Source: Escherichia coli (GTDB taxonomy: Bacteria > Pseudomonadota > Gammaproteobacteria > Enterobacterales > Enterobacteriaceae). Taken from it: DNA of 64,000 bases. Where the stretch lies: the NCBI RefSeq assembly GCF_013122565.1, contig NZ_CP053258.1, one strand, 5' to 3'. Below, one piece after another: positions 200 through 63,032 of this stretch (position 1 is the stretch's first letter; every line of letters starts with the position of its first letter). The notes under the pieces are model-generated. The model was not told where the DNA came from and made no database searches. It saw only the letters and a program-made list of their open reading frames with translations. The translations under genes and the position numbers were made by a program.

Positions 200-764
200 C
201 ATCCGGCGCAGTGCTGGTATCTGTTACCGTCACCGCGTCAATATAATCCAGCACGGCGTTAAGTCGGGTTGTTTCTGCCTGCGTCAGCTTCCGCCCGGCC
301 TGTAATTTCAGTTGAATCAGACTGATGGAAGCCATTGCAGCATCGATCAGCGACTGGCGCTGTGCTTCTGCCGCGTCTACTGCGGCACTATGCTGTGCCT
401 CAGTATCTGTCACCCATTTCTCACCATCCCATTTATCGTATGGCGTTAACGGTGAAAGCGTGACATAACCGTCTTTGATGGCACCGATATAATCCACTGT
501 AACAGCTGCGCCATTTTCTGTTGAGTAAACAGTCTCATTGCGATGGTCTTCTTCATGGCTCCATCCCTTACCCGTAAATACTGCCACTCTTCCCGGAATG
601 TATTCGCCCGGGTCAATACCAGTGGAACAGGCGGGCATACTTACGCCAGTATTAATATATTCATCAGACCAGCCAGTATATTCATACGTAACTGCCTCAT
701 AATAAAAACAACGCATATTACCAGGTACTGTAGCCAGCCCATTTTCATCAAAAACAGGTTTCAT
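171..764 (-). CDS. Tail fiber assembly protein (P2 gpG-like)
   Basis: 197 aa; conserved Tfa C-terminus ...VLDYIDAVTVTDTSTAPDVIWPELPEA; directly downstream of tail fiber gene with start/stop overlap. Confidence 0.85.
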   Translation of the reverse strand: MKPVFDENGLATVPGNMRCFYYEAVTYEYTGWSDEYINTGVSMPACSTGIDPGEYIPGRVAVFTGKGWSHEEDHRNETVYSTENGAAVTVDYIGAIKDGYVTLSPLTPYDKWDGEKWVTDTEAQHSAAVDAAEAQRQSLIDAAMASISLIQLKLQAGRKLTQAETTRLNAVLDYIDAVTVTDTSTAPDVIWPELPEA

Positions 765-2278
765 TATGCAGCCCTCACAATATAATTAAAGGCGATGTTA
801 CGTGGACGGTTTTCATTAGCTGTTGGCACGACACGAGAGGCGTCGAATCCAAGGTCATCGGTTTTGCCTATAGCAGTTGTGTTATTCGCCATTGTCGCTG
901 ATCGTGTTCCTGCATCGTAAAAAGCCCCTCTGATTGCATCAAAAGACATGCCGATCCCGCCATCTGCGAATCCCTCAATATTTCTTATTGCATCCCCCTG
1001 TGAAGATAATAATTGTCGCCCGGCATCCACTCCACGTCCGTCATCCCAGCCACGAATAAATTCACCGCGTAAATCAGGCAATTTATTTGTCGGATAAACC
1101 TTTGCCAGTTCCGGGTATTCTTCAGCAGAAAAAGCCGCACCATTGCATTTTAGCCAGCCTGTTGGCGGAGTGGCGGAAGGCCACGGGACAGGCACACCAA
1201 CGGGTAATGCCGAACCTTCTCCCAAACCAAGGTATGCGAGAAGACCAGCCACATCCTTTCCACTCAAATTGGTAAGCGTATTGTCCAGCGGTTGTTTACC
1301 TGCCAGCGCATTAAGCATTGTCGTGGCAAAGTTCGGATCATTCCCCAGTGCCGCCGCCAGTTCGTTCAGTGTATCCAGTGCCGCGGGTGCAGAACCCACC
1401 ATTGCTGCAATCGCTGATTTCACAAAAGCCGTAGTGGCAATCTGTGTATTGTTGACCGACTGCGCCGCCGTGGGGGCTGTTGGCGTTCCGGTGAGTGCCG
1501 GACTCGATAGCGGCGCTTTCAGTGCCAGCGCATTGTTAATGGTGGTACTGAATTTCGGATCATTGTTAATGGCTACAGCTATTTCTTTCAGCGTGTCCAG
1601 CGTGGCTGGCGCACCATTAATAAGAGCCGTCAGTGCCGCCTGAACAAACTCGGTGGTCGCAACCTGCGTGGTGTTATTCCCCGCCGCTGGCGTTGGCGCT
1701 TTGGGTGTCCCGGTAAACGTAGGACTTTCTTTCTGTGCATACTGTGAATGCGGGTCCGGTGCGGCAAGATGTTTTGCCATCTGATCATCTGCGTACACCT
1801 TCAGCTCCAGTACCTTATCATCCACATACTTGCGGGTTGCCAGCACTACGGCAGGGTCGATTTTCAGGGTGATATTGTCCGTGCTGCTGGTAATCAACAC
1901 CATACGCACGGTCTGGGTACGCCCGCTGCCTTCAGCCAGTTGCGGCTTATAACTTTCCGGGCAGTTGCCCACGGCAATCAATGCCCCGGACTCATCAAAC
2001 AGGCCCACTTCACGTATCCACCAACCGCCCTCGTTTTCAGGGATCACCTGTTCAGCAATAATCTGGCTGCTGTTCTGCGGGTCGATATAGAGCATATTCA
2101 GCGCAGCCCGGCGTTTCTCATTTACCAATGCTGTCTGCTTTGCGTCCGGCGTTGGCAATGTTCCACCGCCATCGCCGACCGCCATATGGGTAATTTTTAA
2201 AGGCACACCGAGCGCGGCGGCGCTGGCAAGGTTCGCCGCGCCAATATCCGTCAGCAGGGTATAAAATTTTGTGCTCAT
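764..2278 (-). CDS. Tail fiber protein (P2 gpH-like N-terminus, Mu S/P1 S-like C-terminal receptor-binding part)
   Basis: 504 aa; N-terminal MSTKFYTLL...MAVGDGGG and repeat block ...LNELAAALGNDPNFATTMLNALAGKQP typical of P2 H; ATGA overlap with upstream gpI. Confidence 0.9.
   Translation of the reverse strand: MSTKFYTLLTDIGAANLASAAALGVPLKITHMAVGDGGGTLPTPDAKQTALVNEKRRAALNMLYIDPQNSSQIIAEQVIPENEGGWWIREVGLFDESGALIAVGNCPESYKPQLAEGSGRTQTVRMVLITSSTDNITLKIDPAVVLATRKYVDDKVLELKVYADDQMAKHLAAPDPHSQYAQKESPTFTGTPKAPTPAAGNNTTQVATTEFVQAALTALINGAPATLDTLKEIAVAINNDPKFSTTINNALALKAPLSSPALTGTPTAPTAAQSVNNTQIATTAFVKSAIAAMVGSAPAALDTLNELAAALGNDPNFATTMLNALAGKQPLDNTLTNLSGKDVAGLLAYLGLGEGSALPVGVPVPWPSATPPTGWLKCNGAAFSAEEYPELAKVYPTNKLPDLRGEFIRGWDDGRGVDAGRQLLSSQGDAIRNIEGFADGGIGMSFDAIRGAFYDAGTRSATMANNTTAIGKTDDLGFDASRVVPTANENRPRNIAFNYIVRAA
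1217..1242. other. Candidate Din-family invertase crossover site (cix/gix/hix-like) inside tail fiber gene
   Basis: TTCTCCCAAACCAAGGTATGCGAGAA; left half matches the recalled consensus TTCTCnnAAACC with central AA, right half degenerate; lies at the constant/variable boundary of H. Confidence 0.3.
1289..1723. repeat. Internal tandem duplication (two units of about 216 bp, about 72 aa each) inside the tail fiber gene
   Basis: Protein units PTFTGTPKAPTPAAGNNTTQVATTEFVQAALTALINGAPATLDTLKEIAVAINNDPKFSTTINNALALKAPL and PALTGTPTAPTAAQSVNNTQIATTAFVKSAIAAMVGSAPAALDTLNELAAALGNDPNFATTMLNALAGKQPL; coordinates approximate. Confidence 0.7.
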
Positions 2279-7999: not shown

Positions 8000-8526
8000 C
8001 AGATAAGCTCCACTGTGCAGTGCGGCGCATCCTGTACCCGGCAGATGGCCCAGCGGGCGTCACGCCACAAATCACCGCTGGCTTCTGCCAGTTCCTCGCC
8101 CCGCTTCACACCGGATGCCGTGGCGTCATAGTCCTGGTAACGTTCGTTGAGCATGGCGCGAGCCCAGCAGTAAACCGCGTTGAAATAGTGCTGAATTCGC
8201 TCGCTTTTCCCGTCCAGCTGTTCCGCCGGAACCTCTGCCAGCGAGGCATATCCCAGCATCTGCTGGCGTCTGCGAAACTCATACAGCTCTGCGTTGACCT
8301 CCGAAATTGCCGACAGCGCAACCTGCTTTAAACGCGGCTGCGTCACCGTGCCGTCAGTGCGCATCACACTGCGAAACTCCGACAGGTCCACATCAGGCCA
8401 GAACGGCGTATTTCTGATGATTTCCGCCTGTTCCGGTGCCTGTTCTGGCGCAACAAACTTCATGCTGCTTTCTCCTGAAATAGAGGGCGGTGGACGGGGT
8501 TTTGATGTGGCAGTGCCTTTCGCCAC
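7999..8526 (-). CDS. Capsid completion protein (P2 gpL-like)
   Basis: 175 aa; C-terminal ...DLWRDARWAICRVQDAPHCTVELI resembles gpL. Confidence 0.8.
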   Translation of the reverse strand: MAKGTATSKPRPPPSISGESSMKFVAPEQAPEQAEIIRNTPFWPDVDLSEFRSVMRTDGTVTQPRLKQVALSAISEVNAELYEFRRRQQMLGYASLAEVPAEQLDGKSERIQHYFNAVYCWARAMLNERYQDYDATASGVKRGEELAEASGDLWRDARWAICRVQDAPHCTVELI

Positions 8527-8558
8527 CCCGTGCCGCCCGTGCGCGGGGGCACGTTCTG

Positions 8559-9209
8559 TCAGCGGCTGTCATTGCGCAGTCTGCGCTCCAGCTGCTGTTT
8601 GTCTTTTTTCACGCCACAGCGGGGATCGAGCTGTAACGCATGGTTGAGATGATTAAGGGCGGAAGCCGGATTGCTTTCACTCAGGACAGCGCCAATCGCT
8701 TTATGCAGACGCGCCCGTGACTGGTCCGGCATATCCAGACCGTCTGTCAGCTCCAGCGTCTGCAGCAACAGATCGGCATCAAAGCCGGTGGCGGCAAGCA
8801 TTGCGCTCTGCGCGGCGTCTGCCATTTCCTCTGCCAGCACGGTCTGCACGTTGCGGTTACCCAGCGGCATCACCCAGCCATGACGCAGGGCATGACGCCC
8901 GATCTCCAGCGCCCCGGCATAATCTCCGGCATCAATACGCCACAGCATCACGTACATCAGCACGTCATCCTGTTGAGCGCCTCCGGCAGCCAGGACACCC
9001 TCTGCCCAGGCGGCGTACTTCGGCAGCAGCTCCACCTTGATTTCCGCTTTTTTGACCGTGGACTGAACGCCCTTGAGACGGCGGCGGTCTTCCGCCAGTT
9101 GCAGCAGCATCAGGTCATAGCCCGATGCGTGGCGAACACTGCCGCCCTCGCGGGCGGCCTGTTCAGCCTGAACGCGCAGGCGATGCTGCCGTGCGGGACT
9201 CAGGCTCAT
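8559..9209 (-). CDS. Terminase small (endonuclease) subunit (P2 gpM-like)
   Basis: 216 aa; synteny between N and L. Confidence 0.8.
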   Translation of the reverse strand: MSLSPARQHRLRVQAEQAAREGGSVRHASGYDLMLLQLAEDRRRLKGVQSTVKKAEIKVELLPKYAAWAEGVLAAGGAQQDDVLMYVMLWRIDAGDYAGALEIGRHALRHGWVMPLGNRNVQTVLAEEMADAAQSAMLAATGFDADLLLQTLELTDGLDMPDQSRARLHKAIGAVLSESNPASALNHLNHALQLDPRCGVKKDKQQLERRLRNDSR

Positions 9210-38835: not shown

Positions 38836-40164
38836 CTACTGCCAGCTAATCTGCGCCCTGCCGTTTTTCTTACTCTTATACAGCCGCTCATCTGCCAGCA
38901 TTTTCAAGCGTTCGACGGTAGTACATTCATTTGAATGCGCTATACCGATACTGGTGCTTAAATTAATGCTTCCCACCTGGAAATGAACAATTTCTTTTAG
39001 AATCGATAGCAACTCTTCCAGCGTTCCACCCGTATAAATCACCGCAAATTCGTCACCGCCGAAGCGGTAGACTTTACCTTTATCTACGGGGATCTGTGAT
39101 TTAAGGATTTTCACCACTTTCATCAACACTTCATCGCCCAGCAAATGACCGAAGGTGTCGTTAATGTTTTTGAATTTATCGACGTCAAACAGGCACAAAT
39201 ATCCGCCTTTTTCCGGCAGGGCTTTTAAATCTTCGTCAAAGGATTTTCTGCCCATTGCTTTGGTCAGGTCGTCCAGGAACGCTGAGTTATACAGACTGTA
39301 GAGTTTTTTGACATCGGCAGCCGAAAAGAAAAGCCCGCCATCCAGTACACGTTCAAAATGGTTATTAATGATGGCTTCTTTCTCCACAATACCACGATTA
39401 ATCACTCTGCGTACCATATAGAGGCAACTGGTACCCGATATCACTGCCACCAATGCGGCAAAGAAAATAATCAATGTACAGACCCGCAAATAAACATCTT
39501 TTTTATACGCAAATACGTACAATCCTGTCGGCAAATAGGCGAAGTGCTCCATCGCTTCCGAAACGGTGAAGATGGCGTTTTTAGCATTATATTCATCACC
39601 GGTCACCGGTTTACCGTTCTTAAACAGAGAGAACATCAGGTTTTCGCTATCCATCGCCAGCGATTTTGACAGTAAAGAAAAACGCTCCAGACCAAGCAAA
39701 AATATCAGACTACGATTGTGAGTTACCGGATAGAGGTAATAGACGAAGGTTTTACCGTCAAAAGAGATAAACCCTGTATTTTTGACATGTCGATACTTCA
39801 CAACCTGCATAATATCTGCACAATAATTTTTCTCGAACTCCTTTACCTGAATACATTCGTCACTGGAAATCAGATAAGGACCGACATCGTACAAATAAGA
39901 GGGTGAAACCGAGTCGGCGTAAGCTGTGCGTAAGCCAACCAACAGCTGTTCCTCCGTGGGATTTAGCGTGTTGATAAGATCAATTGCCACGCTACGCCGA
40001 TATTCAGCAATATTTGCCACCGCAAAAGCAGTATCAATAACGGACTGTTTCAGGCTATACACCCGTTCCTTTACCATTTGAGTGTAGATCCCGCAGGCAA
40101 CTGCTGAAATCATGATAAAAATCAGCAGACTGACTGTAAGTACGAACTTATTGATTCTGGACAT
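38836..40164 (-). CDS. dgcI: Diguanylate cyclase DgcI (YliF)
   Basis: 442 aa; GGDEF motif in ...[12 protein letters not shown]... Confidence 0.9.
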
Positions 40165-59280: not shown

Positions 59281-60399
59281 TTACCAGGCCGGGAGCATAA
59301 CCAACAAAACATATCCCACCAGCGCCGCCCACAACAGCATCGGTATTGAATAGAGATGGAAACGCCACCAGATGCGGCGATCGTTCGCCATACGTAGCGC
59401 AATCAAATTTGCCAGCGATCCGGGTAATAACCCAAAGCCACCTACGTTTACCGCCCATGCCAGTAATAAAGACGGCGGCACATAGTTCAGCAACAATATG
59501 GTACTCGGCACGTTACTGATCACCTGCGATAAACCGATTGCCGTTAACCATAACCCGGGTTCAGATAAATGACTCACGTTAACCAACACGCCTTGCAACG
59601 CTGGAAGCTGGGTCAGTAAATGGACGTCGATAAACATCGCCATAAACACCAGCAGCAACGTCCAGTCCACACTCAACACCACGCGACGTGCCAGCAGCGC
59701 AAAGCCCGCCGCCACAATCACCAGTCCCCACAGCTCTTGTTTGAACTCCAGCGCCGTCAGAAAAACGATATACAGCCCCAGACAACTCCACACCAGCCGC
59801 GGTTTCCACTCCGGCGTTTGCACCCCAGTATGGTATTGCAGCGCCTTTCCAGGGAAACAACACCAGCACAACAGCATGAGTGTCAGCATCATTGCGCCAG
59901 CCAGCGGTGCCATTTGGGCAATAAATCCGGCAAACGAAAGACCAGAACGTCCCCAGATAAGAATATTTTGCGGGTTGCCAATTGGCGTCAGTAGCGAACC
60001 AGCGTTGACTGCCAGCGCCTCAAAAATAATCAGCCGATTAACCGGGATCTCACACAGTCTTTTTAGCGTGATAGTCAGCGGAACAACAATAAACAGCGCG
60101 ACATCGTTGGTCAGAAAGGTAGAAAGCAGCGCCGCCGCCAGCACCATAAACATCGCCAGCCGACGCTCTGTAGCAAAGCGGCGCACCATTTTGCGCCCCA
60201 GCACATCAAAATAACCGCTTAACTCCACACCTTTGGTCAGCAGCATCAGGCCGCTTAATGTGATGATGGTGTGCCAGTCGATAGCAGCAGGCCAGGATTT
60301 CGGTGCAAAGGGCACGAAAAAGCTTAATCCGATACCAACAAGAATTAATAACTGAAAAAAACGATCGCCTTGCAGCGTGCGTAAAAAAGGCAGGCTCAT
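59281..60399 (-). CDS. ybiR: Inner membrane transporter YbiR
   Basis: 372 aa polytopic membrane protein; synteny. Confidence 0.9.
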
Positions 60400-60863
60400 T
60401 TGGCACCGTGTTTCTGGGTAAACAAACGAAAAGCGTCGAGCGTCTCTTCACTAACATGGTGCTCCATGCCTTCCGCGTCGCGACGGGCGATTTCCGGACT
60501 GACGCCCAACACCAACAAGAAATTTTCGACTATCTGATGTCGCTCGCGGCTTTCCTGCGCCAGCTTCTCTCCTTCTGCCGTTAAAAACACGCCACGCCAG
60601 GGGATCATTTCAATCAGCCCCATGGTTGCCAGCCGCTTAAGCATTTTAGCCACCGTCGGTTGCGAAACTCCCAAACGAGCAGCCATGTCTACCTGACGAG
60701 CTTCCCCCACTTCCCTGATCAAGTCAGAAATCAGCTCAACGTAATCATCAATAAGCTCGCGCCGATGCGCCTCTCTGACCTGGCGGAACCCTTCAACGTG
60801 CTCTTCCACGTTCACTAACTGCGTCACTTTTTTTGCTGTTGGCGTACCTGCGCGACGACTCAT
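60396..60863 (-). CDS. mntR: Manganese-responsive repressor MntR
   Basis: 155 aa; [29 protein letters not shown]... Confidence 0.95.
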
Positions 60864-61048
60864 TGTGCTTCCTCATTATGGTGACGCATACATAGCGTTC
60901 TCATTTCGTGCGCACATTGTAAACCAGAGTTGCGAAGGTACAAAAAATTAACGTTTTAGCAATAGCTATATAATATAGCCTGTGCTATATCTGTATGTAA
61001 TGCAATCATCCCTCAAGGATCGACGGGATTAGCAAGTCAGGAGGTCTT

Positions 61049-61177
61049 ATGAATGAGTTCAAGAGGTGTATGCGCGTGTTTAGTCATTCTCCCTTTAAAG
61101 TACGGTTAATGCTGCTCTCTATGTTGTGCGATATGGTCAACAACAAACCGCAGCAAGATAAACCTTCAGATAAATAG
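61049..61177 (+). CDS. mntS: Small protein MntS (rybA locus)
   Basis: 42 aa MNEFKRCMRVFSHSPFKVRLMLLSMLCDMVNNKPQQDKPSDK; GGAGG RBS. Confidence 0.85.
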   Translation: MNEFKRCMRVFSHSPFKVRLMLLSMLCDMVNNKPQQDKPSDK

Positions 61178-61448
61178 CGGCGTCGCGGTACGCCGCTTCA
61201 CTCCTGCTTTTATGCAGGCATAACGCGTTTTGGTCTGAAAAACCCCACTTTTTGTCGGATTTGCAATCCCCTTCGCAAAAGATTTGTTCGTCAGTAGTTG
61301 ACCTGAACGGCGGCTCGCTCTATCTTCTTGCAGCCCTGCGTATATTGCGGCTCGCGGATGCGGACCCCTTTCCCCTCTTCACGCACTCTTGCAGGTATTG
61401 ACCCTTGACGCCAGGGTAAGCACATGGCGTTTGTTACGATAGTGGCAT

Positions 61449-63032
61449 ATGAATTTAACCCTCAAAGAATCGCTTGTTACCCGTAGCCGGGTATTTAGCC
61501 CGTGGACTGCGTTCTACTTTTTACAGTCGCTATTAATTAACCTCGGCTTAGGTTACCCCTTCAGTTTGCTCTACACCGCTGCATTTACGGCTATTTTGCT
61601 TTTGCTATGGCGAACATTGCCTCGCGTACAAAAAGTTCTGGTCGGTGTCAGTTCGCTGGTGGCGGCTTGTTATTTCCCTTTTGCTCAGGCCTACGGCGCG
61701 CCTAATTTCAATACATTGCTGGCATTGCACTCCACCAATATGGAAGAGTCGACCGAAATCCTGACGATTTTTCCGTGGTACAGCTACCTGGTCGGCTTAT
61801 TTATTTTTGCGCTCGGCGTAATAGCAATCAGGCGAAAAAAAGAGAATGAAAAAGCGCGCTGGAATACCTTCGACAGCCTGTGTCTGGTATTCAGTGTGGC
61901 GACATTTTTTGTTGCTCCCGTGCAAAACCTGGCCTGGGGTGGCGTATTTAAACTGAAAGATACTGGCTATCCGGTATTTCGTTTTGCTAAGGATGTCATC
62001 GTCAATAATAACGAGGTGATTGAAGAGCAAGAACGGATGGCAAAACTTTCCGGAATGAAAGATACCTGGACGGTCACTGCCGTTAAGCCGAAGTATCAGA
62101 CCTATGTGGTGGTGATCGGTGAAAGCGCGCGTCGCGATGCCCTCGGTGCCTTTGGCGGTCACTGGGACAATACCCCGTTTGCCAGCAGCGTTAACGGTTT
62201 GATATTTGCTGACTACATTGCCGCCAGTGGCTCCACGCAGAAATCGCTTGGCTTAACGCTCAATCGCGTAGTCGATGGCAAACCACAGTTTCAGGATAAC
62301 TTTGTCACCCTGGCAAATCGCGCGGGCTTCCAGACCTGGTGGTTTTCCAACCAGGGTCAAATCGGCGAATACGATACCGCTATCGCCAGCATCGCCAAAC
62401 GAGCAGATGAAGTGTACTTCCTGAAAGAAGGTAATTTTGAAGCAGATAAAAACACGAAAGACGAAGCGTTACTGGATATGACCGCTCAAGTGCTGGCGCA
62501 AGAGCACTCGCAACCGCAGCTGATTGTTCTGCATCTGATGGGCTCGCATCCGCAGGCCTGCGACCGGACACAAGGAAAATACGAAACCTTTGTGCAATCG
62601 AAAGAAACGTCGTGCTATCTCTATACTATGACGCAAACGGACGATTTACTGCGCAAGCTGTACGATCAGTTACGCAACAGCGGCAGCAGCTTCTCGATGG
62701 TTTACTTTTCTGACCACGGTCTGGCCTTTAAAGAGCGCGGCAAAGACGTGCAATACCTTGCCCATGATGATAAATATCAGCAAAATTTCCAGGTGCCTTT
62801 TATGGTCATTTCCAGCGACGATAAAGCGCATCGTGTGATTAAAGCCCGCCGCTCAGCCAATGACTTCTTAGGCTTTTTCTCCCAGTGGACGGGAATTAAA
62901 GCGAAGGAAATTAACATCAAATACCCGTTTATATCTGAGAAGAAAGCCGGGCCGATATACATCACCAACTTCCAGTTACAGAAGGTGGATTACAACCATC
63001 TCGGAACCGATATTTTCGACCCGAAGCCTTAA
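61449..63032 (+). CDS. opgE: Phosphoethanolamine transferase OpgE (YbiP)
   Basis: 527 aa; N-terminal membrane helices then sulfatase-like domain. Confidence 0.9.
   Translation: MNLTLKESLVTRSRVFSPWTAFYFLQSLLINLGLGYPFSLLYTAAFTAILLLLWRTLPRVQKVLVGVSSLVAACYFPFAQAYGAPNFNTLLALHSTNMEESTEILTIFPWYSYLVGLFIFALGVIAIRRKKENEKARWNTFDSLCLVFSVATFFVAPVQNLAWGGVFKLKDTGYPVFRFAKDVIVNNNEVIEEQERMAKLSGMKDTWTVTAVKPKYQTYVVVIGESARRDALGAFGGHWDNTPFASSVNGLIFADYIAASGSTQKSLGLTLNRVVDGKPQFQDNFVTLANRAGFQTWWFSNQGQIGEYDTAIASIAKRADEVYFLKEGNFEADKNTKDEALLDMTAQVLAQEHSQPQLIVLHLMGSHPQACDRTQGKYETFVQSKETSCYLYTMTQTDDLLRKLYDQLRNSGSSFSMVYFSDHGLAFKERGKDVQYLAHDDKYQQNFQVPFMVISSDDKAHRVIKARRSANDFLGFFSQWTGIKAKEINIKYPFISEKKAGPIYITNFQLQKVDYNHLGTDIFDPKP

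Follow-up and report, generated by a model that had tools for sequence, protein, structure and literature searches.

The DNA analysed here, referred to as the window, is a 64-kb stretch of the Escherichia coli genome that contains the divergent genes mntR and mntS, separated by a spacer of 185 bp. Every base of this spacer was identical to that of K-12 MG1655, and the core region ybiR-mntR-mntS-opgE was found in 5421 of 5426 complete E. coli genomes. The two genes are placed as follows:

60396..60863, minus strand: mntR, a DtxR-family repressor of 155 aa, divergent to mntS, with the Pfam domains PF01325 and PF02742 and 100% identity to PDB 2H09
61049..61177, plus strand: coding sequence of mntS, 42 aa

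A sequence-only reading of the window had drawn attention to a 15-mer in the spacer, GCTATATAATATAGC (the same string as gctatataatatagc; 60965..60979, plus strand), as an AT-rich near-palindrome with a perfect TATAAT about 70 bp before mntS. The description was accurate. The 7-nt arms, GCTATAT and ATATAGC, are fully complementary around a central A and form a perfect 7+1+7 inverted repeat; the TATAAT occupies 60969..60974 of the plus strand and agrees with the consensus at 6/6 positions; and the last base of the 15-mer lies 70 bp from the mntS ATG, within the mntR-mntS interval. The bare palindrome or TATAAT is not above chance frequency. Three perfect 7+1+7 palindromes were observed in the window against 4.1 ± 2.0 expected from Markov-1 simulations, and TATAAT occurred in 19 copies when both strands were counted. 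The 15-mer stands out because its two arms are half-sites that belong to two different MntR operators, and the arrangement of these operators is given below:

60954..60971, either strand: MntR box 1, TTTTAGCAATAGCTATAT, with the core TTAGC-N4-GCTAT, which matches at 9 of 10 positions; it covers -45..-28 relative to the mntS transcription start
60972, either strand: single base (A) that separates the two 18-bp boxes
60973..60990, either strand: MntR box 2, ATATAGCCTGTGCTATAT, whose inverted repeat is perfect and whose core matches at 10 of 10 positions; it covers -26..-9 relative to the mntS transcription start
60965..60979, either strand: the 15-mer, a palindrome at the junction, in which the 1-bp spacer is flanked by the right half-site of box 1 and the left half-site of box 2

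A second perfect inverted repeat, ATATAGC and GCTATAT around ctgt (60973..60990), overlapped the 15-mer, whose right arm doubles as the left arm of this repeat. GCTATAT therefore recurs as a direct repeat at a distance of 19 bp. It makes up the right half of box 1, ATATAGC makes up the left half of box 2, and the arms of the 15-mer point outward. The core ATAGC-N4-GCTAT was common to the K-12 mntH operator, both mntP sites and, twice, the mntS spacer, so that the comparison with characterized MntR operators came out in favour of both boxes:

K-12 mntH, MntR operator: ACATAGCCTTTGCTATGT
K-12 mntP, MntR operator, site 1, with the TTAGC variant as in box 1: ATTTAGCCAAAGCTATGT
K-12 mntP, MntR operator, site 2: ACATAGCTTAGGCTATAT

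A position weight matrix for MntR was made from these three non-mntS sites only (one of mntH and two of mntP). Among the 63,983 positions of the window, box 2 ranked first (21.1 bits) and box 1 second (16.2 bits), and the third-best match reached 13.5 bits. This third match, ATTTTGCTTTTGCTATGG (61593..61610), was located inside opgE and is probably a chance match.

Both boxes have the features of an MntR box, namely an 18-bp inverted repeat with the ATAGC-N4-GCTAT core, and the 15-mer itself does not, with its arms facing outward across a 1-bp gap. The earlier suggestion of an MntR-type half-site arrangement thus stood in part: the arms are half-sites, but the matrix ranks and the mntH and mntP cores assign them to two separate operators, and the 15-mer is not one operator. 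Very probably, the 15-mer is the seam of two abutting 18-bp MntR operators and no unit of its own. According to a cryo-EM report (PMC11275975), two MntR sites overlap the mntS promoter; PMC4361602 states that MntR:Mn represses mntS; and a PmntS-egfp reporter was repressed by Mn only with MntR present (PMC9806134). The paired MntR sites at the mntS promoter are already published, and the element is a known part of a well-studied regulon. A secondary citation and the motif evidence suggest that MntR contacts these exact bases directly.

Conservation was analysed in 80 Enterobacteriaceae loci that were collected via the MntR protein, and the motif played no part in their selection. The alignment comprised 74 distinct mntR-mntS spacers and showed a conserved island at 60941..61001. 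The core of box 2 was exact in all 74 spacers, the core of box 1 deviated at no more than one position in 72 of them, and the core-to-core distance was 19 bp in 74/74; the distance to the mntS ATG ranged from 51 to 81 bp. The segment TGCTATATC (60983..60991, -16..-8 of the mntS start) was likewise invariant (74/74). The perfect junction palindrome existed in 18/74 spacers, and in the other 56/74 the symmetry was lost while the MntR cores were kept. TATAAT was found in 19/74 spacers, and the replacement hexamers were TACAAT, TAAAAT, TAAGAT, TAGAAT, TAAAAC, TACAAC, TAGAAC, TGTAAT, and AGTAAT. Position 60971 was fully degenerate (A 27, T 22, C 20, and G 5). Since the palindrome and TATAAT were variable while the boxes, their spacing and TGCTATATC were fixed, selection acts on the latter and not on the junction palindrome.

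The pattern TAnnnT was kept in 63/74 spacers and lost in 11/74, and the same bases also flank the MntR boxes. The right flank of box 1 (60969-70) was conserved at 99% and 96%, compared with 58% and 82% for its mirror positions (60955-56), and the spacer A (60972) was conserved at 95%. The conservation of this flank and of the spacer A hints at an extra constraint on TAnAAT.

Two further conserved segments were observed outside the boxes. CTGTATGTAAT (60991..61001), which comprises the discriminator plus the initial bases of the mntS transcript, was 91–100% conserved in the 74 species; promoter or start-site constraints are the only explanation offered here. CAAAAAATTAACG (60941..60953), located between the boxes and the mntR -35, was 85–100% conserved and could be involved in autoregulation or act as an UP-like element. 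The DNA upstream of mntR in Leclercia adecarboxylata NCTC13032 (locus L039) was without both MntR boxes and without mntS, and its likeness to the E. coli spacer ended at about window position 60955.

The promoter elements of the spacer and the end of the transcript are the following:

60999, plus strand: transcription start of mntS/rybA (A), from the TSS-seq data of Kim et al. (2012)
60983..60991, plus strand: TGcTATATC, putative extended -10 (-16..-8), within the right half of box 2
60969..60974, plus strand: TATAAT hexamer, which could act as a -10 only for a minor upstream promoter
61176..61197, plus strand: GC-rich hairpin found by folding, at the 3' end of the 205-nt rybA/mntS RNA (60999..61203)
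60909..60943, minus strand: mntR promoter, with its transcription start at 60909 and the putative hexamers TACAAT (-10, 60921..60916) and TTGTAC (-35, 60943..60938)

In Table S1 of Kim et al. (2012; PMC3415461), rybA has a single transcription start, supported by 1402 reads, at NC_000913.2 852270 (minus strand). The corresponding '-50 + TSS' 51-mer, TAACGTTTTAGCAATAGCTATATAATATAGCCTGTGCTATATCTGTATGTA, ending in CTGTATGTA, mapped uniquely to 60949..60999 of the window, and the coordinate conversion agreed, which placed the start at the A at 60999. Apart from the row of rybA, the same table contained no start between ybiP and mntR. Relative to 60999, TATAAT lies at -30..-25 and the 15-mer at -34..-20, and the two boxes span -45..-9 of the promoter of this Mn- and MntR-regulated gene. 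The default promoter scan of the spacer called zero promoters on the plus strand, and the promoter assignments therefore rest on the TSS data.

The sequence-only reading had proposed TATAAT as a -10 element, and the mapped start argued against this. A -10 hexamer is expected about 6–9 nt from the start, but 25 nt separate the end of TATAAT (60974) from 60999, so that the published start puts it outside the -10 distance of the mapped promoter; moreover, only 19/74 spacers keep it, compared with the invariant TGCTATATC. TGcTATATC is likely the extended -10 of the mapped mntS/rybA promoter, an assignment drawn from its position relative to 60999 and its 74/74 invariance. Its hexamer, TATATC, matches the -10 consensus at 4/6 positions, ends without the usual T and depends on the TG extension. 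Caution is thus advisable with such motifs, since a TATAAT can be perfect without being the -10. TGTAAT (60996..61001), with a start near 61008, was also considered as a -10 and was rejected, because the mapped start at 60999 falls inside it.

The rybA transcript was reported to be 205 nt long (PMC4361602). Counted from 60999, it reaches 61203, and this length fits the mapped start because the end of the RNA then falls 6 nt past the GC-rich hairpin. The 5' end of rybA differed among public records, at window positions 60982, 60999, and 61006 (K-12 853064, 853047, and 853040, respectively). The current RefSeq annotation has an rybA of 340 nt, from 60982 to 61321 (K-12 852725..853064); an old GenBank record and an sRNA table (PMC4676190) have 89 nt, starting at 61006; the Storz and Imlay labs work with 205 nt. 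Among these three recorded 5' ends of rybA/mntS, single-nucleotide data were found behind 60999 only. The SMRT-Cappable-seq supplements held no entry for mntS or rybA, and the Rfam search gave no family at the locus, with a chance snoRNA (E = 0.93) as its sole match.

The start of mntR was listed at 852360 with 24 reads (Kim et al., 2012; PMC3415461, Table S1), which corresponds to 60909 of the window. The MntR boxes are thus located at -45..-81 of the mntR promoter, with their centres near -53 and -72.

Three other readings of the palindrome were weighed against that of an operator seam. According to one of them, TATAAT is the working -10 of a second, minor upstream promoter of mntS/rybA, with TTAACG (60948..60953) as the -35 and a start at about 60982; MntR would still repress this promoter, with box 1 over the promoter spacer and the -10, and box 2 over the start. 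TATAAT, a perfect consensus hexamer, could serve such a promoter because the RefSeq rybA ncRNA feature of K-12 begins 8 nt past it (853064, window 60982). However, the TSS-seq data contained no start at 852280-852289 (old coordinates) and only the one at 852270, and an RNA of 205 nt counted from 60982 would stop within the loop of the hairpin. Shimada et al. (2014; PMC3946193) predicted an mntS promoter of the form TTAACG-16-TATAAT in this spacer, which came from sigma-70 holoenzyme SELEX, but the distance from TTAACG to TATAAT counts as 15 bp here. The retention of TAnnnT in 63/74 species with a degenerate third position is what a -10 would show, and TTAACG was 95–100% conserved; both can also be explained by the flanks of the MntR boxes and the neighbouring mntR promoter, and a key -10 position was lost in 11/74 species (TAAAAC, TACAAC, TAGAAC, TGTAAT, and AGTAAT) while TGCTATATC was invariant. 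We consider such an upstream promoter unlikely, though worth keeping in mind.

A promoter in the opposite direction is far less probable still. Here, TATATT (60977..60972) and ATTACA (61001..60996) on the minus strand would be the -10 and -35 of a divergent mntR promoter, and the -10 elements of both genes would stand back to back in the palindrome. A consensus scan gave ATTACA-18-TATATT on the minus strand, and the same combination was predicted for mntR-ybiR by Shimada et al. (2014; PMC3946193). The mapped mntR start at 60909, however, has its own TACAAT and TTGTAC about 55 bp away, and no row for a minus-strand start near 60965 exists in Table S1 of Kim et al. (2012). ATTACA and TATATT were both highly conserved, but this is already covered by box 2 and the start region of mntS. 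The last reading regards the 15-mer as a stand-alone palindromic site of another dimeric protein or as a cruciform-forming element. A stable cruciform would require longer arms than these A/T-rich ones of 7 bp with a loop of 1 nt. A perfect 7+1+7 inverted repeat would suit a dimer; such palindromes are nevertheless at the chance level in the window (3 observed and 4.1 expected), and the perfect symmetry was present in 18/74 species only, whereas the inward-facing MntR repeats were invariant. This reading has hardly any probability left.

The seam of two MntR operators offers a simple account of the palindrome. Each operator is an inverted repeat of the form nnATAGC-N4-GCTATnn with A/T-rich outer flanks. 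Since the outer flanks of MntR half-sites are AT or AT-like, TATAATATA arises automatically where ...GCTATAT, A and ATATAGC... abut. The abutment of the boxes thus yields the outward-facing palindrome and, in E. coli, the TATAAT, so that a palindrome with TATAAT follows from the geometry of the two inverted-repeat operators as a by-product. With plentiful Mn2+, dimers of Mn-MntR would fill both boxes and cover -45..-9 of the mntS/rybA promoter; RNA polymerase would be shut out and mntS repressed. When Mn is scarce, the boxes would be free and mntS strongly transcribed, and the high TSS read count in minimal medium would represent this derepressed state. Since the boxes cover -45..-9, their position fits repression through occlusion of RNA polymerase, which is the most likely mechanism. 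For the use of PmntS as a Mn biosensor, the functional core should be taken as 60954..60991.

Prophages were found inserted within the palindrome, and the sequences concerned are as follows:

60969..60977, either strand: TATAATATA, the core duplicated at both prophage ends (attB crossover core), with a likeness that extends over GCTwTATAATATAkC
NZ_CP043414.1, locus L086, 8508..39370: prophage of strain EC42405, with attL at about 8520..8560 and attR at about 39300..39345
NZ_AP031375.1, locus L085, 642..9545: prophage remnant of 8.9 kb in strain 160-11H1, between mntR and mntS

The spacer was interrupted at the palindrome in 30/5426 complete E. coli genomes. When a 91-bp query across the operator was used, the match ended at about window position 60977 in 30 genomes, and the integrase-side junction was carried by exactly 30/5426 genomes. 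In strain EC42405, GCTATATAATATAGCC and GCTTTATAATATAGCC flanked a P2-family prophage of 30.8 kb, which had a tyrosine integrase beside attR. Its junctions read ...GCTATATAATATAGCC / attgc... at attL and ...gatgctt / TATAATATAGCCTGTGC... at attR, so that the core present at both ends coincides with the centre of the 15-bp palindrome. This prophage was complete and contained CI, CII, Fil, ogr/Delta, and P2-family capsid, terminase and tail genes. The arrangement has the features of an attB site: a prophage between direct core repeats (up to 16 bp, with 1 mismatch), an integrase at one end, and most genomes empty. The integrase is a tyrosine recombinase (PF00589), and its gene adjoins the junction on the mntS side. 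The locus of Citrobacter sp. R56 also diverged directly after ATATAGC. It is therefore highly probable that the palindrome, as an additional use alongside the MntR boxes, is the attB core of a P2/186-like temperate phage family. Such use leaves the conservation of the site unexplained in genomes that carry no prophage, which make up more than 99%, and a search of the phage collection with the attP arm gave no match to a free phage genome. A literature search on mntS with prophage or attB gave nothing on point.

The 8.9-kb remnant in strain 160-11H1 contained a retron-like reverse transcriptase together with an integrase, CI, CII, Fil, a Dam methylase, and a truncated replication endonuclease and portal gene. 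The reverse transcriptase (254 aa; L085 963..1727, minus strand) was encoded beside a serine O-acetyltransferase. Its best PADLOC match was RT_VI (63 bits), its matches were only those of generic retron reverse transcriptases, and no PDB relative was found at 1e-5. It may be linked to the retrons Ec67/Ec86 at '19 min'.

The spacer of Citrobacter sp. R56 (locus L014) matched that of E. coli as far as ATATAGC, box 1 included, and beyond this point gave way to unrelated A/T-rich DNA. The inserted DNA encoded a Cys/His-rich protein of 265 aa (ORF 308..1105, minus strand) with no PADLOC match, and no mntS was found within the 1.5 kb examined. This insert looks like a different element at the same point.

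The attP reconstructed from the junctions, agATAGTtaatGCTTTat-a-atATAGCcattGCTAAat, was identical to the double MntR operator of the host at 26/37 positions, and its box-like parts scored 11.4 and 21.2 bits with the matrix made from the mntH and mntP sites. Because of this resemblance, both prophage junctions keep pairs that are like MntR boxes, and the junctions predict that mntS retains box 2 and its -10 after integration. It is conceivable, although rather unlikely, that the mimicry of the double operator by attP is selected: upon lysogeny, an mntS promoter under MntR control would be rebuilt at attR and a double box placed beside mntR at attL, or MntR of the host would help to control integration and excision. 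The likeness may otherwise be a relic of shared attP/attB ancestry or reflect the core-site preference of the integrase. If a role of MntR in integration or excision were true, it would couple phage recombination to manganese status. A prophage site inside an operator is a modest curiosity, and it could show how phages choose and preserve regulatory DNA.

The mntS boxes are of the same kind as the operators of mntH and mntP in E. coli: all are 18-bp inverted repeats with the ATAGC-N4-GCTAT core, under the same regulator and the same Mn-dependent control. However, mntH has a single site, and the two sites of mntP are 40 bp apart from centre to centre and lie far upstream. Compared with mntH and mntP, abutting boxes with a 1-bp gap existed at mntS only.

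A closer counterpart of this spacing is provided by the MntR arrays of mneP and mneS in Bacillus subtilis, which were studied by cryo-EM. According to that report (PMC11275975), 18-bp sites composed of two 9-bp inverted repeats are separated by 1 bp, as at mntS, and are likewise bound by dimers of a DtxR-family MntR; the authors point out the identical site spacing at mntS. The mntS spacer has the same tandem layout at 60954..60971, 60972, and 60973..60990. The arrays of mneP and mneS have four sites and activate an exporter, whereas the two sites at mntS repress. The residues that the report names for the dimer-dimer interface of B. subtilis MntR are Lys20, Tyr22, Asp27, and Glu55, and 1/4 was kept in E. 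coli MntR: in the alignment to chain 1ON1, K20 corresponds to V52, Y22 to E54, D27 to D59 (kept), and E55 to I87. With three of the four interface residues changed, cooperativity via the same contacts is doubtful, and any cooperativity of the two E. coli MntR dimers would need other contacts than in B. subtilis.

As a promoter element, TATAAT resembles the sigma-70 -10 in all six positions, yet it stands upstream of the mapped start by the 25 nt given above. TGcTATATC resembles the extended -10 promoters in having the TGn extension, which is typical where the -35 is weak. As an attachment site, the palindrome is similar to the attB sites of the P2/186 family, in which a short A/T-rich and partly palindromic core is duplicated at the prophage ends and the integrase gene lies by one end. 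The attB described here differs from these in that it sits in a repressor operator pair of a promoter region, not at a tRNA or a gene end, and in that the phage arms also resemble MntR boxes.
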